DNA of 64,000 nt, from the IMG/VR virus record IMGVR_UViG_3300010373_000006, positions 5,198 through 69,197 of that record; one strand, written 5' to 3'. This DNA comes from a virus. The notes below the pieces were generated by a model, which was not told the origin of the DNA, ran no database searches, and saw nothing but the letters and a program-made list of their open reading frames with translations. This document shows positions 4,611 to 64,000 of the stretch, piece by piece. Both the position numbers and the translations under genes were made by a program. Every line of letters begins with the position of its first letter. Positions within the stretch are counted from its first letter, which is position 1.

Positions 4611-5411
4611 GTGGTGATCGTGACCGAAGATCGCGACGACATGGCCTTCTGGTGGCCGATTTTGCAACGCTCTAGGGTTTCCGCCCCTAGGACGGTGCTT
4701 CTCACGACCGACGTAGCGCTCTCGGACTTACTTGACGGCAAGACCCCGGAGAACTTCGACGGCTTTCTTTCGGCACTCCGCGCGATCTGCGACGGCATGG
4801 GCTACCCATGCTTTCTCCGGACCGGCCAGACGAGCGGCAAGCACGACTGGCGGCGAACCTGCTACCTCAAGCGCGGCGAGGATCTGGTGAGCCACGTTGC
4901 CGCGCTGGTCGAGTTCTCCGAAATGGCCGACATGCTGGGACTCTCGACCCGGACGTGGGCCGTGAGGGAATTCCTGCAGTTGGAGCACTCATTCACGGCG
5001 TTCGACGGAATGCCGGTTGCTCGGGAGTTCCGGTGCTTTTTTGAGGGAGGGAAGTCCGAGCCGCTGTGCATGCACAGTTATTGGCCCGAAGATGCGATCC
5101 GCAACGCTTCGGTGCCAGACTGGAAAGATCGGCTCGTCCTGATCAACTCGTGCAACCCGGACGATGTGAGTGATATTCAGGAGACGGTTCGCCGGGTGAG
5201 CCCACACTTCGAGGGTAAGTGGTCCCTGGACGTTGTGCGGGCGAAGGACGGGCGGTTTTACGTGACCGACATGGCCGAGATGGAGCGGTCATTCCACTGG
5301 CAGGGTTGCCCCAACGATCCGCACCCTGAGCACCATCGACCCGAACTGACGGACGAGGAGCGGAACGTGATGGCGAGCGCGTGGTTGGTACCCGAAACCG
5401 AAAGGAGGTGA
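4611..5411 (+). CDS. ATP-grasp-fold protein (Cdc123/R2K-like)
   Basis: PCFLRT...SGKH, REFRCFF and WSLDV...FYVTDM motifs. Confidence 0.55.
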   Translation: MVIVTEDRDDMAFWWPILQRSRVSAPRTVLLTTDVALSDLLDGKTPENFDGFLSALRAICDGMGYPCFLRTGQTSGKHDWRRTCYLKRGEDLVSHVAALVEFSEMADMLGLSTRTWAVREFLQLEHSFTAFDGMPVAREFRCFFEGGKSEPLCMHSYWPEDAIRNASVPDWKDRLVLINSCNPDDVSDIQETVRRVSPHFEGKWSLDVVRAKDGRFYVTDMAEMERSFHWQGCPNDPHPEHHRPELTDEERNVMASAWLVPETERR

Positions 5412-6652: not shown

Positions 6653-7366
6653 GTGAATCGCGCGGGAGGTGTTCAAGGTGGCACGGCGTCCAACCAGGAC
6701 GCAGGGGGCGGTTCGATCCCGGCCTCCGCGCTTTCGTTTCGCATTGGGATGAAGTGTGACGCTTTTGAGTTGGTGAAGCGGTTTCATTACTCGCATCGCA
6801 TCCCTTCGAATATCCAACTTATCACAAGTCTTCATTCTCCGTGTGGTCTTTTCGGAGACGCGGGTGAGCCTGTGGCTGCGGCGATTTGGACGTTCCCGCC
6901 GACGCGATGGAGTGAGATCGTTTGGGAACTCGCCCGACTTGTTCGTCGCCCTGGCCCAAGAATTCCCTTAACTCTTCTGATTCGTTTGTCCTGTTCGCAT
7001 CTCAGGACATCCGGCGCGGATTTACTTGTCTCATTCGCCGACGCCACGCACGGGCATCACGGAGGCATCTATCAGGCGTGCGGCTGGCGTTACGGCGGCT
7101 TTCGTTCACCACGAATGGACGGCGTTCTCTACGAAGGCAAATTCATTACCGGAAGACGGGCGAATCATCTTTGGGGAACACAGTCTCCCGATCGTCTTGC
7201 TTCGCAGGGAATCACTGTTGATCCCCACTACGACGAAGGGAAACACCTCTATTGGAGGGCCTTATCGCGAACTGGCGAGGCCAAGGCGAAACGGCTCAGT
7301 TTGAAGGATCTCCCTTATCCGAAGCCGTCAAGAATCGACTCCCTCTCAACCCCTGGACAGCGATGA
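6653..7366 (+). CDS. mom: Mom-family (GNAT-fold) adenine modification protein
   Basis: HYS, WELARL and LVSFADATHGHHGGIYQACGWRYGG motifs; GAGGAG RBS before GTG 6653 (alternative ATG 6629). Confidence 0.75.
   Translation: MNRAGGVQGGTASNQDAGGGSIPASALSFRIGMKCDAFELVKRFHYSHRIPSNIQLITSLHSPCGLFGDAGEPVAAAIWTFPPTRWSEIVWELARLVRRPGPRIPLTLLIRLSCSHLRTSGADLLVSFADATHGHHGGIYQACGWRYGGFRSPRMDGVLYEGKFITGRRANHLWGTQSPDRLASQGITVDPHYDEGKHLYWRALSRTGEAKAKRLSLKDLPYPKPSRIDSLSTPGQR
6661..6731 (+). other. Degenerate tRNA-like cloverleaf inside the 5' end of the mom-like gene
   Basis: Stem GCGTC/GACGC around a 7-nt loop CAACCAG, then GGCGG-TTCGATC-CCGGC T-arm; CGCGGG/TCCGCG acceptor-like pairing. Confidence 0.45.
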
Positions 7367-7375
7367 CGTAGCGAC

Positions 7376-8437
7376 GTGGCTAAACCGCAACCTTCAGCGT
7401 GGGGAAAACTGAGTCAGGGGCAGAAATACATGCCCTGGGCATTGGACATTGCACGCGCCGTGTTCGCGCTCGGATTAGGGGAAAACGTCGGCATGCTCTT
7501 CTGGCACGTGGTCGAACAATCCTGGGCTCTCCCCCGCTTTCGCACTCGCGACAAGTGGTCGGATCCGCTCCCCGTATTGCTCAAGTGCTCCGACCTCGCC
7601 GACGAGTGGGGAACGTCGCGGCAGCGGGTCCACGAGGCCAAGAAGTGGCTGGTCGCGTCACGCTTAATTTTGGAAGATTCGGACGGCGTTTGGGTCAATA
7701 AGAATGCCCATGAATGGATCAATCCGAAGTGCGGCCAACCGCTCTTGAATGCAAAACAACTTGCTTATGCCACCGCTGCAAGGAGTCGCGGTGAGAGTGA
7801 AACCTGTCACGGTACACCGTTACAAGATGACACGCATGGATGTCACGGTACACCGTTACAAGAGGGCGATAAGTGTCACGGTCTACCGTTACAACCCACA
7901 CATGCATGTCACGGTCTACCGTTACAAAATGACGACGTTTGTCACGGTACACCGTTACAAAATCCCTCGCGCGTAGAAGATCGCGTGCGCGAAAATAATA
8001 AAAAATCTGAAAAAGAAAATACTACTACTGAAGCCGAAGTAGACGCGGTTGATTCGTGGGCTCAAGGCGCATTCCGAGATCGCGGCATCTACGAACTCCA
8101 GAACATCGGCCCCAACGTTCGCCTCTGGGTACGATCCCGATTCAAGGCCGCTTGGATCAGGGAGGCTCTTCTGGCCGGCGCAGCAAACGATCCCACGCAC
8201 ATCGTCAGATACGCCAACGGGTGCCTTCGGAAATGGGAAAAGGCCGGAGCTTCGACATCCGAGCAGGAAGCCGCGAAGGCTGCCAAAAAGGCTGAGTCCG
8301 AACCGATCGTCTACCACGTCGCCTCCCCCGACGCCGACGTCCGGCTCGCTCGCATCGAAGCGAACCAACGTGAGAAGAACCGGAAACTTCAAGCCGAACT
8401 CGCGGCGAAGCATGCCGCGAAGGAGATGCCCCAATGA
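7376..8437 (+). CDS. Phage replication initiator (lambda O-like organisation)
   Basis: N-terminal HTH-like segment, internal iteron repeats (CHGxPLQ x5), DnaD-like C-terminal region, coupled to dnaB. Confidence 0.75.
   Translation: MAKPQPSAWGKLSQGQKYMPWALDIARAVFALGLGENVGMLFWHVVEQSWALPRFRTRDKWSDPLPVLLKCSDLADEWGTSRQRVHEAKKWLVASRLILEDSDGVWVNKNAHEWINPKCGQPLLNAKQLAYATAARSRGESETCHGTPLQDDTHGCHGTPLQEGDKCHGLPLQPTHACHGLPLQNDDVCHGTPLQNPSRVEDRVRENNKKSEKENTTTEAEVDAVDSWAQGAFRDRGIYELQNIGPNVRLWVRSRFKAAWIREALLAGAANDPTHIVRYANGCLRKWEKAGASTSEQEAAKAAKKAESEPIVYHVASPDADVRLARIEANQREKNRKLQAELAAKHAAKEMPQ
7805..8030. repeat. Replication origin: five 21-bp quasi-palindromic iterons plus an A-rich tract
   Basis: TGTCACGGT(AC/CT)ACCGTTACAA at 7805, 7841, 7874, 7907 and 7940 (spacing 36, 33, 33, 33); A-rich 7991-8030. 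Confidence 0.8.
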
Positions 8438-14696: not shown

Positions 14697-14923
14697 AGAC
14701 CGCAACCGCGACGTGCAAGCCCATCCTGTTTTCCGGGCCGCTACACGATCGGTGTCGGCGCCGGGGAATTGATTGTCTACTGCAAGAGGCTCTCGGACGT
14801 CTCGCAGGCTCCGATCGGGTTCTGCGGCGTGAAGGTGACGGCGAAGTTCACGGGCGCGTTCTTCCGGTCCAGGGAAGCCCGCTCGCCAACGGCCCTACCG
14901 ATCCGGAGAACCCTGAGCCATGA
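14693..14923 (+). pseudogene. Probable truncated remnant of a KERPILFSGPM-type phage protein
   Basis: Starts MKTATATCKPILFSGP, then loses similarity to that family. Confidence 0.3.
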
Positions 14924-15921
14924 GCGACGCGGCCCCCTCTGCCCCCAAAGAAATCCGGTTCTACCGGGCGAGCGAAAAGCCCTACGGTTGCTTTTCCAAC
15001 TTATACCGCAGGCCCTTCGAATTCGAGGGCAAGACCTACTCCACGGCGGAAGCCGCCTACCAGGCCGGGAAACCCCGGGCTGACGCCGTGCGCCGCTGGA
15101 TCCTCGATGCGCCGTCCCCCTCTCTCCTCGCCATGGCGGCCCATGGCCTGGCCTACTGGGACATCGCGCCCGGCTGGAGCAAGAACCGCCGCACTCGCAT
15201 GAAGGCCGTCGTCCAGGCGAAGTTCGCCCAGCACAAGGACCTGGCGGATCTCCTCGTCGGTACGGGCGCGGCCCGGCTCGTGGAAACGGGCACGGTCGAT
15301 AACGACGTGAACCGCCGCTGGGGCGAGGTGAAGGGCGTCGGCGAAAACGGACTGGGGATCATCCTGATGGAAGTCCGGGGCGAACTGGGCGGCACAGGCG
15401 TCATTGCACGCACACCGCCACGCCTCGGGCTCGATCCCAGTCGCCCCTTGCTGTTTCTGGATATTGATGGCGTACTCAATTGTTCGTTCAATAGCCGAGA
15501 GCAAATCGGCATGTTCCATGTCGAACCGGTCCTGGCTTTTCGCAAGTTCCTCCAGGCCGTGACGCCCCAGGTGGTCTTATCGTCCACCTGGAGGAGCATC
15601 ATCCATGCGGGCTACATGACCGTGAAGGGCTTTGAATCGCTCTTGCTCACGCACCGGATTCGCTGTGAGCTCATCGACGTGACCGCGAAGGACCTGGGCG
15701 ACGTCGACCCCTTTCAGCGCCCGACCCGCGCCGCTCAGATTGCCGACTGGCTCAACCAGCATCACATGGAACAGCCCTATGTCGTGATTGACGACGACGA
15801 TGATGGGATCTCGGCGGCGGGGCATCCCTTTGTGCAGACGAATGGGGCCTTCGGGTTCACTGCGGAGGATGGCGAACGGGCGATTCAATTGCTTGAGGAG
15901 CAAAGGAAGGTTTTAACATGA
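14920..15921 (+). CDS. NADAR domain fused to a HAD (Swiss-Army-Knife type) phosphatase domain
   Basis: FY..PYGCFSN...YSTAEAAYQAGK...KFAQH.DL..LL.TG..LVE...WG..GENGLGIILMEVR (NADAR); LFLDIDGVLN, VVLSSTWR, YVVIDDD (HAD). Confidence 0.85.
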   Translation: MSDAAPSAPKEIRFYRASEKPYGCFSNLYRRPFEFEGKTYSTAEAAYQAGKPRADAVRRWILDAPSPSLLAMAAHGLAYWDIAPGWSKNRRTRMKAVVQAKFAQHKDLADLLVGTGAARLVETGTVDNDVNRRWGEVKGVGENGLGIILMEVRGELGGTGVIARTPPRLGLDPSRPLLFLDIDGVLNCSFNSREQIGMFHVEPVLAFRKFLQAVTPQVVLSSTWRSIIHAGYMTVKGFESLLLTHRIRCELIDVTAKDLGDVDPFQRPTRAAQIADWLNQHHMEQPYVVIDDDDDGISAAGHPFVQTNGAFGFTAEDGERAIQLLEEQRKVLT

Positions 15922-16154
15922 AGACGAATTACCTTAAACGGGTGGTCAAAGCCGAGTATCAACTCGCCGCCGCCCAGGAGCGGGAGCGGAGGCTGCGGGA
16001 AGCATGCGCGGACGCGCTAGAAGCCGTAGGCAGTGTCCCGATCAACGACAAAAACAAACGCGATCCCGACACCCTAGCGGCGCTGCATGCCTGCCTGATC
16101 TTGACTACCGCCCTGGCCGACGAACCCGCGAAAGGACCCAGCAATGCCCGATGA
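15918..16154 (+). CDS. Hypothetical protein
   Basis: ATGA coupling. Confidence 0.5.
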   Translation: MKTNYLKRVVKAEYQLAAAQERERRLREACADALEAVGSVPINDKNKRDPDTLAALHACLILTTALADEPAKGPSNAR

Positions 16155-16527
16155 ACCCCTGAAGCTTCTACCGTGCCCGTTCTGCGGTCACGACTCACCG
16201 GATTTCGAGCGGCTGGGCGATCGTCGTCAATCCTGCATCGTCGTGTGCGGGATGTGTGGTTGTCGGCACGAAAGCAGCGACGAAGGACGTTGGAACGGAT
16301 CGTCGTGGAACCGCCGCGTAAAGCCGTTGGAGACAAAAACAACCGTTCATTACGGCGTCCAGGAAAAGCGCAAGCACGACGAATCCGCGACGTGGGCGCG
16401 ATTCGTGGAATACGACACCCATAAAGCCGCCGTAGAAGAGATGACGCATCTCCGAAAACTGAATCCGATTGCGAAGGATTGGGATTTTCGCGTGGTCAAG
16501 ATCACGACGGAGGCATGCAATGAGTGA
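16144..16527 (+). CDS. Lar-family restriction alleviation-like protein
   Basis: LLPCPFCG...VCGMCG...WNRR. Confidence 0.7.
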   Translation: MPDEPLKLLPCPFCGHDSPDFERLGDRRQSCIVVCGMCGCRHESSDEGRWNGSSWNRRVKPLETKTTVHYGVQEKRKHDESATWARFVEYDTHKAAVEEMTHLRKLNPIAKDWDFRVVKITTEACNE

Positions 16528-17092
16528 ACCGCTGAGCCCCTGCCCCTGGTGCCCCAACGGCGGCGAGCCCGAAGTCTACCGCCCCATGCAGGTCGCGGCG
16601 ACGCATCGTTTCCATGTGCGGTGCAAGGCATGCGGTGCGATGGGGCCGTACACGGAAACGGACGGGCGCGAGGCCGCGATTGCGGGGTGGAACCGCCGTG
16701 CGGAGCCGATGCTGAGCGATGCCGTGGTGGATCAACTGATCACCCACGAGCCAGCGATGACACTCACGGCTAAGGCTGGGCGAACCCACACGACGCCCGA
16801 ACAATGGACGGCCATGATCGTGACGAAAACCGAGCGTGGCATGAGGTGGATGACCGATGGGTTTGCATCGCTGGCTGAAGCCCGCGCGGCCGTGCGGAAG
16901 GCGATGTTGGGAGAGACCGATACCACCAGGGCAGACCCGGTGGTCGAGAAAACACCAGGGGAGTCTCCCGCCGAGACGCTTGGGAAATTGCGAGCCGCGG
17001 CCCGAAAGGCCCTTGAGACCCTGGACCGCAGCGGCCTGGGTTTGAGCGCGGCCGCGTTCGACGAGCTTCGCGCGGCGGTGGCGGAAGGCTGA
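16520..17092 (+). CDS. Second Lar-like protein with C-terminal extension
   Basis: LSPCPWC...VRCKACGAMGP...AIAGWNRR. Confidence 0.65.
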   Translation: MSEPLSPCPWCPNGGEPEVYRPMQVAATHRFHVRCKACGAMGPYTETDGREAAIAGWNRRAEPMLSDAVVDQLITHEPAMTLTAKAGRTHTTPEQWTAMIVTKTERGMRWMTDGFASLAEARAAVRKAMLGETDTTRADPVVEKTPGESPAETLGKLRAAARKALETLDRSGLGLSAAAFDELRAAVAEG

Positions 17093-17113
17093 GCCGGGGA
17101 AGGGGGAGACGAC

Positions 17114-17800
17114 GTGAAGGTCTATCTTGCATCGCCGAATACGCAACAGCAGGCAGAGCACGCCGCCGATATGCCGGTGTTGCTCTCGTTTGCGTGCTAT
17201 TCGAGTTGGCAGGATAGATATCAGCAAACCTATTCCCGCATCCTGATCGACTCGGGCGCTTACTCGGAACTCAACAGCGGCAAGATGATCGAACTCCCGG
17301 CCTACATCGACTGGGCGGCGCGATGGACTGGCCACGCCGACGCCGTGGCAGGACTCGACGACATTCGCGGTGACTGGAAGCGGTCGCTTGCGAACTACGA
17401 GCGATTCCCCGGCGGGTTTCCCACCTTTCATGAGACCGACCCGCCCGAACTTCTGGATGAGTTGATCCCTATGGCTCGCGAGCGTGGCGGATGGCTGGGA
17501 ATCGGACTCTTACCGCCGCGCGAGGGAAAAGAGACGTGGGTTCGCGAAACGTGCTCTCGAATCCCCGACGACCTTCACGTTCACGGCTGGGCACTTAGGC
17601 GATACACGCACGTTCGGCGGCTCGATTCCGTCGATTCAACAAATTGGTGGCGCGATGCTATGAAACTGCGAACACTTCCGGACTTATCGCACCTGACGTA
17701 TGGTGAATGCCTTGAAATCGTCGTGAAGCGCTACCAGCGATGGGGGCGAGAGGTTCGCGAGTCCAAGGGAATGCCGCTTTTTGATGAGGTGGTATCATGA
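17114..17800 (+). CDS. TGT-fold DpdA-like 7-deazaguanine DNA transglycosylase candidate
   Basis: LIDSGAYS, LDDI, PTFH, HVHGW, DSVDSTNW motifs; coupled to queE. Confidence 0.65.
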   Translation: MKVYLASPNTQQQAEHAADMPVLLSFACYSSWQDRYQQTYSRILIDSGAYSELNSGKMIELPAYIDWAARWTGHADAVAGLDDIRGDWKRSLANYERFPGGFPTFHETDPPELLDELIPMARERGGWLGIGLLPPREGKETWVRETCSRIPDDLHVHGWALRRYTHVRRLDSVDSTNWWRDAMKLRTLPDLSHLTYGECLEIVVKRYQRWGREVRESKGMPLFDEVVS

Positions 17801-18432
17801 AGACCTACGCCGTGAAGGAAATGATCAAGACCCTCCAGGGCGAGGGCTTCCACGCGGGCCGCGCGGCGATCCTCTGCCGGTTCGCGGGCTGTAACCTCTG
17901 GTCGGGGCGTGAAAAGGATCGCGCCTCGGCCGTCTGTCGGTTCTGCGATACGGATTTCATCGGCGTCAACGGCGAGAACGGAGGGCGGTACACGGCGGCA
18001 ACGCTCGCATCGCGAGCTGCCGAATTATGGGGTAGCGATCGCACGCACCGTTTCATTTTTCTCACCGGCGGGGAACCGATGCTACAGGTCGATTCGGTGT
18101 TGATCGACGCGCTGCATCGCTTCGGATTCTTCGTACAGGTCGAGACCAACGGGACGCTGCCGGTGCCGCCCTGCCTGGATTGGATCACGGTGAGCCCGAA
18201 GGCTGGTGCCGAATTCAGGCAAATGAGCGGGCAGGAGTTGAAGTTGGTCTATCCGCAGGCCGGCGCGGAACCCGAGCGATACGCCGGATTGACAGGCTTC
18301 CGCGACTTCCTTTTGCAGCCGATGGATGGCCCGGCGAAAGAGGCGAACACGCGAGCGGCAATCGAGTATTGCTTGGCTCATCCGCAATGGAGGCTCAGCA
18401 CGCAAGTTCATAAACTGATCGGTGTGCGATAG
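17797..18432 (+). CDS. queE: 7-carboxy-7-deazaguanine synthase QueE (radical SAM)
   Basis: TLQGEG, RFAGCNLW...CRFCDT (CX14CX2C type), TGGEP, ETNGT, VSPK, WRLSTQVHK. Confidence 0.95.
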   Translation: MKTYAVKEMIKTLQGEGFHAGRAAILCRFAGCNLWSGREKDRASAVCRFCDTDFIGVNGENGGRYTAATLASRAAELWGSDRTHRFIFLTGGEPMLQVDSVLIDALHRFGFFVQVETNGTLPVPPCLDWITVSPKAGAEFRQMSGQELKLVYPQAGAEPERYAGLTGFRDFLLQPMDGPAKEANTRAAIEYCLAHPQWRLSTQVHKLIGVR

Positions 18433-43425: not shown

Positions 43426-44253
43426 GTGAACTTCAACCGCGCCTCACACCTCTGGCACGGCTTCGACGGCACCCAACAGCCGCCTCCGGGGTGGGAGTTG
43501 GACCCGGATGATGAGTTCGGGGATGCGGCGCTGTCGCTTCTTCCGAGCGATAATAAATTCTATGATTATGGATACAAGAATCTTTCGGCGGGAAACGTCG
43601 GGACAATCACAGGATACGCAGGGTCCAGCGGGCCGCTACTCAGTTTCGGCGGCTCGCAGACGATTCCGATCACGTTTTATCCGCCGCCGTTAGGATTCAT
43701 GGCGATGGCGGTCACTTTCCAGACCACGGTTTCGGGTGCTCAAAACTCGATCCTCGGGTTCAACTCCAACTCGAATGGTATCTCTATTGGATTACATGAT
43801 CGCGATATGTATCTAGATTCAAGTGGCTTTCTGAAGTTTTATGTGTTTAATGGTAGTTCTCAGACTGTGACGTCGAATGCAGCACTCAATGACGGCAAAC
43901 CGCACAGTGTAGTTGGGGTCATCAACGGCAAGCTTTGCATGTATGTTGATGGAGTGCTACAAACCTCAACTGTTTCCAGCGTCAATAATGGATACAACGG
44001 CTATAGTGCTGGTTCGTGCTACCTCGTGATAGGGGCGTGCGCTCAGGGGACGCCAGGGTATTTCACCGGCCAACTGGGTTCGGTCTCAGTTTTCAACCGC
44101 GCCCTCATCCCCTCCCAGATCGCCGACCTCTACTACACGCCGTTCCGTGGGTTCCGACCGCCGGCGGGGCGGAGGGTGGTTGTGGCGCAACCGTCGTCCT
44201 CATGGCCCTGGTGGATCTCCCAGGGATCACCGCTCGGCGCAGGGGTACTCTGA
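43426..44253 (+). CDS. LamG / concanavalin-A-like domain protein
   Basis: LNDGKPHSVVG, MYVDGV, IGA...FTGQLGSVSVFNRALIPSQI. Confidence 0.8.
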   Translation: MNFNRASHLWHGFDGTQQPPPGWELDPDDEFGDAALSLLPSDNKFYDYGYKNLSAGNVGTITGYAGSSGPLLSFGGSQTIPITFYPPPLGFMAMAVTFQTTVSGAQNSILGFNSNSNGISIGLHDRDMYLDSSGFLKFYVFNGSSQTVTSNAALNDGKPHSVVGVINGKLCMYVDGVLQTSTVSSVNNGYNGYSAGSCYLVIGACAQGTPGYFTGQLGSVSVFNRALIPSQIADLYYTPFRGFRPPAGRRVVVAQPSSSWPWWISQGSPLGAGVL

Positions 44254-60464: not shown

Positions 60465-60809
60465 CGTCGTCTTTCCCCTTGCGTCTCGTGTCGTGATCCC
60501 GGCTCACTCGCCTCGTAGCAGCCTCACCACCTGCTCCAGCACCCACTCGTCCTCGCACGCATCGCACAGCTCGCTGGCCGTGCGCTGGAGATCCGCGAGG
60601 TAGTCTTCGCGAACCGCTTCGGCGGTCCCGAGGTCGAGTTCGGCCTGCAACCGGGTCGCCACACCGAGGGCCTGTCGTTCGGTCCGGCAGGACTCGTGAT
60701 AGTGGCCGTCGGAGTCGACGACGTGCCAGGAGTAGCCGTCGAGGCAGGCTTCGTAGCGGACGCGGAATTCGCGGAGGGGTTGCGGGCCGTCCTTGGCCCT
60801 GGGTGAAGG

Positions 60810-60974
60810 TCAGGCATTTTTCCCGATCAGCATCCGAGCAATTGCGTTGACGTGCTCTCTCGCCCACTCCTCGTTGCTCGGTAGTAGTTTGACGCCATTG
60901 ACCTCTTCGCCTCGCAGGGCAGCCTGAAGGGATTCCATTTCTTTCGTCAGTTGCTTGCGGGTCGTCACGGTCAT
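60810..60974 (-). CDS. Small hypothetical protein (54 aa; not in ORF track)
   Basis: GGAG RBS; MTVTTRKQLTKEMESLQAAL...; first gene after the leftward promoter. Confidence 0.5.
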   Translation of the reverse strand: MTVTTRKQLTKEMESLQAALRGEEVNGVKLLPSNEEWAREHVNAIARMLIGKNA

Positions 60975-61020
60975 CGTCTCGGCTCCGGTCGGGGTGGTTT
61001 GCGTCTGCCTTACACTATGG

Positions 61021-61049
61021 ATTATAGCACTCGTCTATGTACGGGTCAA
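61021..61049 (-). promoter_or_regulatory. Leftward sigma70 promoter
   Basis: Minus strand TTGACC (61044-61049), 17 bp, TATAAT (61021-61026). Confidence 0.75.
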
Positions 61050-61119
61050 GAGCACAAGATCGAAAATCTTTGCTATCTGAAAAGTTTTCGCTCGGGCACT
61101 CTCCTTATTGACCAGTCTC

Positions 61120-61148
61120 TTGACGTCGTGGACGGCGTTGTCTACACT
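61120..61148 (+). promoter_or_regulatory. Rightward promoter of the HTH-cas12 operon
   Basis: TTGACG (61120-61125), 17 bp, TACACT (61143-61148). Confidence 0.7.
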
Positions 61149-61204
61149 ATAGGAAGTCGATAACCTGGCAAGAGAGATTCCCTCCCGTTGCCAGGAGTCA
61201 GACG

Positions 61205-61462
61205 ATGCCGGAATCGAGGAAACGCCGCGTGCCGATGGGTGAAACGCTCGAAAAGAATCTGGTTCGCCTCGGATGGGCGAGCACGAAAGTTCGTGTGTCC
61301 GAAATCGCGAAGGCGGTGGAAGACCGAACAGGGAAGTCAGTTACCAAACAGCGGATTTCCGGCCTTTTGAACGCGATCTTTATCGAGTCCAAAACCATCA
61401 AGTGGTTGGCCGAAGGGCTCGGGGTGAAGCCAGAGGAATTGACCAAAGAGGAACCAAAGTAA
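61205..61462 (+). CDS. XRE/Cro-like HTH regulator coupled to the Cas12 gene
   Basis: VSEIAKAV...VTKQRISGLLN...TIKWLAEGLGVKPEEL; AGGAG RBS; TAATG overlap with the next ATG. Confidence 0.75.
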   Translation: MPESRKRRVPMGETLEKNLVRLGWASTKVRVSEIAKAVEDRTGKSVTKQRISGLLNAIFIESKTIKWLAEGLGVKPEELTKEEPK

Positions 61463-63474
61463 TGGCCTTCGGCAACGTCGCGAAACCTAGCCGGATCTAC
61501 ACGCACAAGAGCCGCCCCCCGCACGAGGGTGCGCAGCTCGCGAGCGACCAACTCTACCGTGCACACCAGTACGCCAACGCGCTGATCGAGACCGAGCGCC
61601 AACGCTGGAACGCGACCCAGGATCTCATGCGGTCGATGTTCCCGCGCATCGCGGAACTCGAAGCCCGGATCGACGCAATCAACGCGGCGATCGAGGCCAA
61701 AAACGCAGCCGTCAAGCACCAGAATCAGGCCGCTCGATCACGCACTGCGACAGCTGAGGACCGCGCTGAGGTCAAGCAACTCCAGAGCGAACGGCGCGAT
61801 GCAGCCAAGGAGCTCACCGCCGAACGCCACCGCCAAACCGGAGTCCCCAAGCCTCGCAAGGAAGCCTGGGAGCGAATTCACGCGGTCATCAACGCCACGA
61901 CGCGCGACGAGAAGGAACGCAAGGCACTGCGCAAGGCTGCGCAGGCGGCCATCGACGCGGGCGAATCGCCGGCCCCGCTGACCGCCGAAGAGGACCGCGA
62001 GGCGTTCGGTGATCCTGAATACCGCCGACGACGCGCGGCGATTGACGAGACCGCCAACGCGGATCGGCGGGCCAAGCGCGCGGTGTGCGAGGTTTACTGG
62101 GGAACGTACCTTTGCGTCGAGGGGGCGGTCGACAAGTCGGTGGAGGATTGCGCCAAAGGGCAACCGGTACGCAATGGCAAGCCTCCGGTTCCACCGGGAC
62201 CGCCCCGATTCCGGCGCTGGTCGCCCGAGGGGAAACTCGGCGTGCAACTTCAGGGCGGTCTGTCCTGGCTCGATGCGCTGGCGGGAACCGATTCACGGCT
62301 CCGGATCGAACTCCAACCACTTGCGGCGCGGCCGACCGTGAGCAAGTCGGGCAAGCCCTTGCCTCTGGCTGATCCGAATTCGCGGCGGTCGCGCGAGAAT
62401 AGCCAGGTCGTCGTCTGGGCGCGGATCGGCACTGAGGAGGATGGGCGTTCGCCAATCTGGATGAAGACCGTGGCGCACCTTCATCGCCACCCACCGGCTG
62501 ACGCCGTGATCAAATGGGTCTACCTCCAGCGCAACCTCAAGGGTGTGCAAACGTGGTGGGAGGCTCAGTTTGTCTTCGAGCGCGAAGAGGGCTGGGCCAA
62601 GGATCGCGAGACCCTGCGCGGGGAGGCCGCGATTGACCTGGGGTGGCGCAAGGTCGCTGACGGCTTGCGCGTCGCTGTGCTGATTGACGACGACGGCGAG
62701 CGGATGGAATGCGTACTGCCGGATTCCTGGCTTGAATCGTGGGCCAAGGCGCAATCAATCCAGGGGTTCCGCGACACGGAGTTCGACGCGATTCGCCCGG
62801 CGCTGGTGCACTGGCTCAAGGCGCGGCGGGAGGCCGGTACGCTCCCGGAATGGCTCGGGGAGGCAACCGGGAGCCTACATCAGTGGAAGTCCTGCGAACG
62901 GCTCGGGAAGGTCGTCTGGCAATGGAAGGACCAGCGATTTGACGGCGACGAGGCGATGTTCGAGCGTCTGGTCGAGTGGCGGAATCGCGACCGGCACCTG
63001 CACAATTACGCGCGTGGGATGGAAGAAACCGCCGTACGGCGTCGCGACGAGCATTACCACCGCTGGGCGGCCCTGGTGCGGCGGCGGTATGCGTTGGTGA
63101 AGGTGGAGGATACCAACTGGCGTGAGATGCAGCACCGACCCGAGGCGACGGACGACGGCAAGAATGCGACGATCGGCGCGTTCCGCTGTGCGGCGGTCGG
63201 ACGGTTGCTCGAAACGATACAAGAGCACGTATGGAACGTGGTCGCCGTTGAACCGGCCTGGACGACGAAGACCTGCCACGCTTGCGGGCATGTTGATGAT
63301 TTCGACTCCGCGAAGGAACTCGTCCACACATGCTCGGCGTGCGGGGAAATCTGGGATCAAGACGACAACGCGGCGCGCGGCCTGCTGAAAGGCCGCGTGC
63401 TCAAGTGGCTGACGCGGGAGGGACGGAAACTACCCAAGGCGGAGCGTGTACGGGATGTTGAGGCGGCGGTGTAA
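61462..63474 (+). CDS. cas12m: Type V CRISPR effector, Cas12m (V-U1)-like, ~670 aa, RuvC D-E-D intact
   Basis: N-terminal coiled coil; YWGTY, RFRRW..EGKLGVQLQ, HRHPPADA, IDLGWR (RuvC-I), VEDT (RuvC-II), CHACG/CSACG Zn ribbon, DQDDNAA (RuvC-III); adjacent CRISPR array. Confidence 0.8.
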   Translation: MAFGNVAKPSRIYTHKSRPPHEGAQLASDQLYRAHQYANALIETERQRWNATQDLMRSMFPRIAELEARIDAINAAIEAKNAAVKHQNQAARSRTATAEDRAEVKQLQSERRDAAKELTAERHRQTGVPKPRKEAWERIHAVINATTRDEKERKALRKAAQAAIDAGESPAPLTAEEDREAFGDPEYRRRRAAIDETANADRRAKRAVCEVYWGTYLCVEGAVDKSVEDCAKGQPVRNGKPPVPPGPPRFRRWSPEGKLGVQLQGGLSWLDALAGTDSRLRIELQPLAARPTVSKSGKPLPLADPNSRRSRENSQVVVWARIGTEEDGRSPIWMKTVAHLHRHPPADAVIKWVYLQRNLKGVQTWWEAQFVFEREEGWAKDRETLRGEAAIDLGWRKVADGLRVAVLIDDDGERMECVLPDSWLESWAKAQSIQGFRDTEFDAIRPALVHWLKARREAGTLPEWLGEATGSLHQWKSCERLGKVVWQWKDQRFDGDEAMFERLVEWRNRDRHLHNYARGMEETAVRRRDEHYHRWAALVRRRYALVKVEDTNWREMQHRPEATDDGKNATIGAFRCAAVGRLLETIQEHVWNVVAVEPAWTTKTCHACGHVDDFDSAKELVHTCSACGEIWDQDDNAARGLLKGRVLKWLTREGRKLPKAERVRDVEAAV

Positions 63475-63659
63475 GGTGTCACGCGAGCGGCGACGTGGCG
63501 CGAAAATCCCGGGCGCCGCTCGCGTGGTGTAAATTGGTGGATGGCAATGGGGTTACGGAATGTGGCTTGGAAGGAAAGGAGGATCGGGAGGATGGAACGT
63601 GCGGCCTCTCGCAAACCGGCGTATAATCGGGTGCGGGGAAAGGGGTTATGAGGGGTGCT
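63475..63659 (+). promoter_or_regulatory. CRISPR leader
   Basis: 185-bp non-coding gap; TATAAT at 63622-63627, 32 bp upstream of repeat 1; no clear -35. Confidence 0.6.
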
Positions 63660-64000
63660 GTGTAATGCCCGGCAGAAGGCTTTGGATTCTGCGACGGTGG
63701 GGCCTTGCGTGTTGCCGCAGTCTCCAAGACGAGTGTAATGCCCGGCAGAAGGCTTTGGATTCTGCGACATCGTGTCGGAGGTCAGGGCCGAGTCGAGGAC
63801 TGGGTGTGTAATGCCCGGCAGAAGGCTTTGGATTCTGCGACGTGTCCTGGTGGGGTGTGGCTCTTCCGGGTTGCAACGTGTAATGCCCGGCAGAAGGCTT
63901 TGGATTCTGCGACTGTGATGTGGGTCTAAGATGCATGGAGCCCTTCTCTGTGTAATGCCCGGCAGAAGGCTTTGGATTCTGCGACCCGGAGTAGAGGTCG
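63660..64000 (+). CRISPR. CRISPR array: at least 5 identical 36-bp repeats, truncated by window end
   Basis: GTGTAATGCCCGGCAGAAGGCTTTGGATTCTGCGAC at 63660, 63733, 63806, 63878 and 63950; unique spacers of 37, 37, 36 and 36 nt plus a partial fifth; internal GCAGAA/TTCTGC stem. Confidence 0.98.

Follow-up and report, generated by a model that had tools for sequence, protein, structure and literature searches.

We analyzed a 64,000-nt window (bases 5198–69197) of the 69,197-bp IMG/VR virus record IMGVR_UViG_3300010373_000006. The window ends inside a CRISPR array, which an earlier note on this DNA had described as a homogeneous phage array whose repeats resemble those of Cas12m systems. The gene next to the array does encode a homolog of Cas12m, and the repeats fit a Cas12m-type scaffold, so that comparison was right. 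All on the same strand (+), we find cas12m (61462–63474), a 185-nt leader (63475–63659), and an array with 10 spacers, whose leader-proximal part runs from 63660 to the end of the window at 64000. Judged by sequence, this is a type V-M CRISPR locus.

The identification of the effector gene draws on PDB, Pfam, and the database's gene call. Its longest open reading frame (ORF) starts at 61273 and has 733 codons for amino acids, while the database's gene call has 670 amino acids and begins at M64 of the longer frame (the ATG at 61462), with a Shine-Dalgarno sequence (AGAGGA) upstream. Residues 290–705 are similar to a Cas12m in PDB (23vw_A, E = 9.9e-58), and the protein contains a Cas12f1-like TNB zinc ribbon (PF07282, E = 4.4e-10). 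The CxxC...CxxC and RuvC motifs align with those of 26 relatives. The RuvC triad is D392/E549/D634, and the same residues are found in 21, 21, and 26 of the 27 aligned sequences, respectively.

The relatives of this protein are few and distant. At E up to 1e-5 there were 45 proteins, including the query, and the best of the others was 41% identical (BLASTP). A scan of metagenomes gave mainly proteins of about 30% identity, plus two short fragment matches, and 401 planctomycete genomes contained no Cas12m at E up to 1e-10. At least 27 further viral contigs in IMG/VR (which we will call L012–L038) encode relatives of Cas12m, and 9 of these contigs are at least 90% complete. In 14 of the 27, an array begins 117–206 nt downstream of the cas12m gene, so the order of effector gene, leader, and array is found in relatives as well. 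(Many of the relatives' cas12m genes are at contig ends, as would be expected if arrays break assemblies.)

Within the window, the array contains five identical copies of a 36-nt repeat (GTGTAATGCCCGGCAGAAGGCTTTGGATTCTGCGAC) at 63660–63695, 63733–63768, 63806–63841, 63878–63913, and 63950–63985, with a period of 73, 73, 72, and 72 nt. These are the five identical repeats that the earlier note had reported. Spacers 1–4 (63696–63732, 63769–63805, 63842–63877, and 63914–63949) also match its list letter for letter, and the window closes with the first 15 nt of spacer 5 (63986–64000). Extending the contig, as the earlier note had suggested, showed that the window's end cuts the array and that the window holds the leader-proximal half. 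The array continues at the start of the record (bases 52–486), where repeats 6–8 are identical to the first five, repeats 9 and 10 are variants, and repeat 11 is decayed. The whole array has eight identical repeats, two variant repeats, the decayed eleventh, and 10 unique spacers of 36–38 nt. Given the regular period and the eight identical 36-mers, a chance origin is impossible.

Repeats 9 and 10 have 5 and 6 substitutions, including a compensatory change in the stem from A-T to G-C, and repeat 11 retains 14 of its first 17 nt and overlaps the ATG of the next gene. So the description of the array as homogeneous and undegenerated holds for the part in the window, but not for the array as a whole. 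The leader-distal ends of arrays are usually decayed, and the far end of this array fits that pattern. Its polarity, with identical repeats on one side and decayed repeats on the other, fits a leader on the cas12m side. Some other virus-borne V-M arrays are more heterogeneous: by a seed-based count, 5 of 20 repeats in L012, 1 of 30 in L022, and 1 of 7 in L026 are identical copies, versus 8 of 10 in this phage. GC skew is +0.18 at 62001–64000 (cas12m and the array) and is within about 0.1 either way in the rest of the phage.

The record is rated as 100% complete, in the class with direct terminal repeats. Its two ends (bases 1–66 and 69132–69197; the latter is 63935–64000 of the window) are an identical 66 nt, comprising one repeat together with the 15 nt that precede it in spacer 4 and the 15 nt that follow it in spacer 5. 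In other words, the record's mark of completeness, its "direct terminal repeat," is CRISPR array sequence. Because there is unique spacer sequence on both sides of the repeat, we take the overlap for a real join, circular or circularly permuted. The circular genome would have 69,131 bp, and the array crosses its junction.

We also considered that a bacterial CRISPR locus might have been misjoined to a phage, or that the genome was falsely circularized through the repeats. The contig does begin and end inside the array, repeats commonly cause misjoins, and an overlap of 66 nt is short. However, unique spacer sequence of 15 nt lies within the overlap at either side of the repeat. Furthermore, phage DNA, cas12m, and the beginning of repeat 1 are joined on an independent 40,265-nt contig from Logan, phage-type genes directly follow the array at its far side, and the 27 other viral contigs with relatives of Cas12m include 9 that are at least 90% complete. 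An assembly artifact seems very improbable.

To characterize the carrier, we scanned 91 ORF calls with PHROGs and Pfam. The structural genes encode a large terminase, a portal, a capsid-protease fusion, head-tail joining and cement proteins, and a tape measure; other phage genes encode an integrase, a helix-turn-helix repressor-like protein, DnaB, and three DNA methyltransferases. By this gene content, the carrier is a temperate siphovirus-type phage. The complete viral record and the structural genes bear out the claim that the array is phage-borne. The stretch was found in a single DNA sequencing run, a soil metagenome that is possibly the source sample and that also yielded the 40,265-nt contig; no RNA run is listed as containing the stretch. 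Among relatives of the terminase in bacterial genomes, seven of eight are from Planctomycetota, including an Isosphaeraceae metagenome-assembled genome (MAG; 65% identity), the complete chromosome of an Anatilimnocola (59% identity), Phycisphaerae, and others; the eighth is on a 5-kb contig from an Anaerolineales MAG. These relatives support the planctomycete host that the earlier note had guessed.

The 3' stem of the repeat, GCAGAA/TTCTGC followed by GAC, had been noticed before and is present in the repeat's fold. It occupies positions 13–18/28–33 of the repeat (63672–63692 in the first copy) and recurs in each copy. A second helix, GCC/GGC at positions 8–10/19–21, would form a pseudoknot-type CRISPR RNA (crRNA) handle together with the stem. 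When folded alone, the 6-bp stem is no more stable than in shuffles, so its support comes from comparison. In the variant repeats, the A-T to G-C double change preserves it. Across the repeats of 11 related viral loci, 92.9% of the cells in the pseudoknot helix (9–11/20–22) and the stem (14–19/29–34) are paired, as compared to 68% for shuffles and 32–44% for slid controls, and two-sided changes occur in all 9 pairs. (The structure was derived from these same sequences, which favors it over the slid controls; L033, which did not fit, and L028, L034, and L037, whose repeat boundaries are unclear, were left out.) RNAalifold independently recovers the stem, and all 6 of its 6 pairs show compensatory changes.

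This fold agrees with the published handle of Cas12m2, whose crRNA has a 36-nt scaffold and a 6-bp helix that ends about 3 nt before the guide (PMC10442227). In the repeat from this phage, one additional nucleotide separates the stem from the final AC. None of Rfam's CRISPR-DR covariance models matched within 60800–64000 at E up to 1; the sole match was a chance microRNA (E = 0.17). Outside the array, the longest stretch in the phage that is complementary to the repeat is 11 nt (computed), and there are no reverse matches to the repeat with up to 3 mismatches. Since there is no anti-repeat, there is no trans-activating crRNA (tracrRNA). The covariation-supported fold of pseudoknot plus stem may be new.

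The leader, from the stop codon of cas12m to repeat 1, contains a conserved motif. The leaders of nine loci could be aligned on it. The sole strongly conserved block in the leaders is a 9-nt core, CC(G/T)CTCGCA; in this phage it is CCTCTCGCA, at 63605–63613 (+), 52 nt upstream of repeat 1. We then counted the motif in 15 V-M loci (of which L027 and L028 are near-duplicates): CTCG(A/C)A lies 51–53 nt upstream of repeat 1 in 13 of them, namely this phage and 12 of 14 relatives. (L026 and L034 lack it.) The background frequency of the motif is 1 per 1,395 nt, and the Cas12m proteins of the motif-bearing loci are just 25–33% identical to the one from this phage. With leader lengths of 117 to 206 nt, the motif keeps its place relative to the array rather than to the gene. 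Variants of the motif are present in metagenome-derived loci, and it was not seen at a fixed place beside 19 host-type, Cas1-adjacent arrays.

We found no conserved RNA structure around the motif. Pairing of the motif with the 3' end of the repeat was rejected because there was no co-variation, and we also rejected the idea that the motif is part of a decayed "repeat 0," as 14 of 36 positions match (counted by eye). The motif might be a promoter element, a regulator's binding site, or an integration signal. It is not described in the part of the Cas12m literature that was compared, and it may be new; the leaders covered in a preprint on type IV-A3 (10.1101/2023.06.23.546257) are those of types IV-A3 and I-E.

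A TATAAT hexamer in the leader (63622–63627, +) is a possible but weak −10 box for the array, read from the sequence; it has no −35 box, which is why the promoter scan missed it, and it is not conserved in the relatives, nor is there any conserved −10 box in V-M leaders. Upstream of cas12m, a consensus scan gave a sigma-70-like promoter candidate (TTGACG-17-TACACT at 61120–61148, +), which is faced by a stronger divergent candidate on the minus strand (61049–61021). These two sites compare to 0.6 expected in shuffles, and the scan is no evidence of function. Directly 3' of the stop codon of cas12m is a strong GC-rich hairpin (63479–63527, +) of 13–14 bp with no T-run. The fold of 63475–63540 has an energy of −33.4 kcal/mol (z = −2.2; 4 of 200 shuffles were equally stable). 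Its effect might be to stop, or to modulate, transcription that reads through into the array.

No cas1 or cas2 had been visible to the earlier note, and this holds both just beyond the array and across the entire phage: there were no matches to Cas1 or Cas2 in six frames, with controls that responded. Pfam scans of 82 of the 91 ORFs found no Cas family (eight of the other nine had already been named by PHROGs, and cas12m was scanned separately), although Cas4 had no six-frame search of its own. Furthermore, none of the 27 other viral records with Cas12m contains Cas1. The missing adaptation module is a rule for this subtype, then, and not special to this phage.

From the lack of cas1 and cas2, the earlier note had argued that spacers are acquired in trans by adaptation proteins of the host. 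That argument starts from an absence, and we saw no positive sign of it in the sequences. For plasmid-borne type IV-A3 systems, the case for acquisition in trans began with the co-occurrence of type I-E systems in the host and with shared repeats and leaders, followed by experiments (10.1101/2023.06.23.546257). We looked for the same kind of sign, a repeat and leader shared with a co-resident Cas1-Cas2 system of the host, among candidate hosts. In Isosphaeraceae, 18 of 20 Cas1 neighborhoods contained arrays (19 in all), with repeats of 32 nt and 37 nt that mostly end with ATTGAAAC; these match the phage's repeat at no more than 17 of 36 positions, and their leaders are unrelated. Two arrays from another genome (G032) match at no more than 19 of 36 positions. 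There was no repeat-like match in 121 Isosphaeraceae genomes, and repeat-like matches in two genomes from the 401-genome sample of the phylum (G286 and G278) were rejected, as they are near the chance level and there are no arrays there. Searching with a degenerate pattern, we found this repeat in no other IMG/VR contig; no metagenome contigs contained it either. Comparison of the repeat and the leader to host arrays, which the earlier note had suggested, thus gave no likeness in the candidate host family. Cas1 itself is present in 73 of the 121 Isosphaeraceae genomes and in one of five genomes that carry related prophages; the complete Anatilimnocola chromosome lacks it.

As for what the spacers target, the earlier note found no match by eye within the window, and this extends to the collections that we searched. 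No full protospacer for any of the 10 spacers was found in the phage itself, in the INPHARED phages, in PLSDB, in 557 kb of viral loci, in 46 viral records, or in 522 planctomycete genomes. Within the phage's own genome, the best matches are 16/16 (spacer 5) and 14/14 (spacer 7). INPHARED gave no spacer match. PLSDB gave a match of 28/31 (E = 0.4) to a fhuF gene of Paracoccus, which we take to be chance. The best match in the 557 kb of fetched viral loci was 16/17 (E = 0.17), and the 46 whole viral records gave one match of 20/21. Five genomes with related prophages, searched with the first half of the array only, gave E values of 0.08–0.68. In 401 genomes of Planctomycetota, spacers 1–4 had 7 matches at E up to 0.01 (the best at 40 bits), versus about 4 expected, and spacers 5–10 had none at E up to 0.001; in 121 Isosphaeraceae genomes, neither half of the array had a match. 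(The search of planctomycete genomes scored 2–5 candidates per genome and had no positive control of a single 36-nt match.)

Taking these observations together, it is probable that the array belongs to a complete but adaptation-less type V-M locus, which is an accessory module of a temperate siphovirus-type phage of a soil planctomycete. How it would operate can be inferred from what is published on Cas12m. Transcription of the array would proceed rightward, starting in the leader or reading through from cas12m, and the transcript would be cut into crRNAs that have a repeat-derived 5' handle and about 17–20 nt of spacer. These would guide Cas12m to double-stranded DNA that is flanked by a protospacer-adjacent motif (PAM), which Cas12m would bind tightly without cutting, and the binding would block transcription or replication of the target. 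In a lysogen, the likeliest use would be to exclude or silence competing phages and plasmids.

Several points weigh against this proposal. None of the 10 spacers has a target among the sequences searched, so a role in defense or competition is not borne out. A consensus scan found no convincing promoter in the leader, and both the transcription of the array and the processing of crRNAs are predictions. Because the RuvC triad is the canonical D-E-D, cutting by this Cas12m is possible, as Omura et al. raised for the D-E-D clades (PMC10442227). And the circular join is a 66-nt overlap in one assembly; the Logan contigs, with k = 31, break inside the repeats and thus neither span the junction nor show spacer variants.

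Alternatively, the locus could be an inactive remnant: captured from another element with its spacers, no longer updated, perhaps unused, and passively carried. In favor of this, the phage has no adaptation genes, no cognate source of adaptation and no targets were found, and no other contig has this repeat, which means that there is no sign of spacer turnover. Also, the arrays of some relatives are strongly decayed (L012, with 5 of 20 identical copies, and L022, with 1 of 30). However, this phage has 8 identical repeats out of 10 and an intact cas12m whose catalytic and zinc-binding residues are conserved, it retains the conserved motif in the leader, and a compensatory change preserves the stem in its variant repeats. 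Together, these features suggest selection on the locus, and we consider a remnant to be unlikely.

We also considered a regulatory use, in which a non-cutting Cas12m represses genes of the phage itself, of the host, or of related elements, by means of full or partial (PAM-proximal) matches. One of the other viral contigs points in this direction. In L014 (also G003), two spacers (8158–8198 and 8308–8344) perfectly match the contig's own Uma2-family nuclease gene (PF05685; 41/41 and 37/37), which would be tolerable only if there is no cutting. The gene ends about 630 nt upstream of the cas12m of L014, and the two protospacers lie within 5094–5166, on opposite strands, with a 5-nt overlap. However, their 5' flanks differ, and when the 92 spacers of 11 virus-borne V-M arrays were compared to 725 kb of their own records, just these 2 spacers, in 1 array, gave self-matches. 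We rejected self-targeting as a general trait of these arrays.

In this phage, there is no full self-match, but there are two partial matches that bear on regulation. First, nt 5–20 of spacer 5 match the minus strand of the phage's own genome at 44119–44134 of the window (16/16, or 22/36 for the entire spacer). A match of 16 nt was reached by 1 of 300 sets of shuffled spacers. Second, nt 1–16 of spacer 2 (63769–63784) exactly match the 3' end of a 485-amino-acid prepilin-type gene (N_methyl, PF07963) on G433, which is the viral contig with the closest terminase (66% identity). The match coordinates for spacer 2 are 1501–1521 in L082 and 1480–1516 in L067. The same prepilin-gene element is present in an Isosphaeraceae MAG (contig C79 of G029), at 97.7% identity to G433, so we count the two as one observation. 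The phage itself has no homolog of this prepilin-type gene.

For a type V guide, nt 1–16 of the spacer is the PAM-proximal end. The match of spacer 5 misses four PAM-proximal nucleotides, and the match of spacer 2 is borderline, with E = 3.2e-4 for that record and about 0.03 over 46 records, so it is near chance after correction. Nevertheless, the heteroduplex of Cas12m2 is only 17 bp (PMC10442227), so a match of this kind could in principle be bound, and V-M systems are said to work with partial complementarity (10.1101/2023.03.03.530964). We treat the two matches as leads, not findings. Overall, we doubt that regulation is the locus's main use, and we give this explanation about the same low weight as a remnant.

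A broader and equally tentative idea is that virus-borne V-M systems are widespread, self-contained programmable repressors. The leader element, with its fixed place 51–53 nt (about five helical turns) upstream of repeat 1, would be the site for a dedicated factor. That factor might integrate spacers in a way that is unrelated to the host's arrays, or it might regulate the array by turning it on in lysogens. A non-cutting Cas12m could then silence rival phages, or genes of the host or of prophages (such as the prepilin-type gene matched by spacer 2), without endangering the lysogen's chromosome. We think that this is unlikely to be correct as a whole.

The phage has other genes that might be of interest. 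On the far side of the array is a gene for a circularly permuted YpsA (cpYpsA, of the SLOG family), which starts inside the decayed last repeat. Further on are genes for a CsrA-like regulator and a GNAT acetyltransferase. (The coordinates for this set of genes are bases 481–948 and 4892–5113 of the record, before the window.) Small genes with no assigned family also lie beyond the array. At 14920–18432 of the window there is a likely cluster for anti-restriction or nucleic acid modification, with a NADAR-HAD fusion and two Lar-like proteins; it also includes queuine tRNA-ribosyltransferase-like and QueE-like radical SAM genes, which hint at 7-deazaguanine modification of DNA. One of the three DNA methyltransferases is fused to ParB. 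ARAGORN identified a tRNA-Gly with anticodon ACC at 6659–6731.

Viruses are known to carry CRISPR components of other kinds. Virus-borne mini-CRISPR arrays have no effector and have host-type repeats, and Cas12j (CasPhi), from huge phages, cuts DNA. Like the locus described here, these are viral arrays without adaptation genes, and they are thought to serve in conflicts between viruses. In contrast, this locus is in a 69-kb temperate phage and has its own effector, which is probably non-cutting.

The closest functional comparison is to the characterized type V-M systems. Cas12m proteins are PAM-dependent DNA binders that silence rather than cut (PMC11013384, PMC10442227), and orthologs including those with the D-E-D triad are described as binding without cutting and without a tracrRNA, and as protecting against phages and plasmids (PMC11013384). 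Going by the parts of these two reports that cover MmCas12m and GoCas12m, the phage locus resembles those systems in having a homologous effector, a 36-nt repeat, a handle of pseudoknot plus stem, a single crRNA with no tracrRNA, no adaptation genes, and an effector gene that is followed by the array. By analogy, this Cas12m probably also binds DNA in a PAM-dependent way without cutting it. There are differences: the characterized systems are from bacterial chromosomes or plasmids instead of a phage; their effectors have about 600 amino acids instead of 670, and the phage's protein is at most 41% identical (BLASTP) to the relatives we found; and their repeats end with AC instead of GAC, which places the phage's stem 1 nt further from the repeat's end.

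A phage-encoded Cas12m beside an array was described, in a preprint of September 2026, for the myxophage MV-1 (10.64898/2026.09.14.751636). As presented in the compared portion of that preprint, it too has a D-E-D triad, lacks cas1, cas2, cas4, and a tracrRNA, has repeats unlike those of its host, and has no identified protospacers. The host of MV-1 belongs to Myxococcota, while our phage's inferred host is a planctomycete; and the Cas12m of MV-1 has 610 amino acids and its array 8 spacers, instead of 670 and 10. Phage Cas12m with an array is already known from MV-1, and as far as that source goes, our locus adds an independent second case, from a different host phylum. The preprint calls its own case the first phage Cas12m, which is at odds with the at least 27 contigs in IMG/VR. 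IMG/VR was among the sources searched by Bigelyte et al., and viral loci may already be in their supplementary list (PMC11013384).

The plasmid-borne type IV-A3 systems are also adaptation-less CRISPR systems on mobile elements that repress rather than cut and that take part in conflicts between elements (10.1101/2023.06.23.546257, in the portion compared). Unlike the phage locus, they have a multi-subunit class 1 effector with DinG, and their repeats and leaders resemble those of the host's type I-E system, and their acquisition in trans was demonstrated experimentally; for the phage, we found no matching repeat or leader in the candidate hosts.

Our results add a complete, circularly assembled phage Cas12m system from Planctomycetota, a phylum whose phages are little known. 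With at least 27 further contigs in IMG/VR, the carriage of this presumably binding-only effector by phages recurs. As a divergent and compact predicted DNA binder, this Cas12m is a possible candidate for a tool. With the leader motif and the covariation-backed fold of the repeat as handles, experiments could address how transcription of V-M arrays works, or how these arrays grow without a Cas1-Cas2 of their own. How spacers are gained and transcribed is a question that is common to all of the adaptation-less type V systems.

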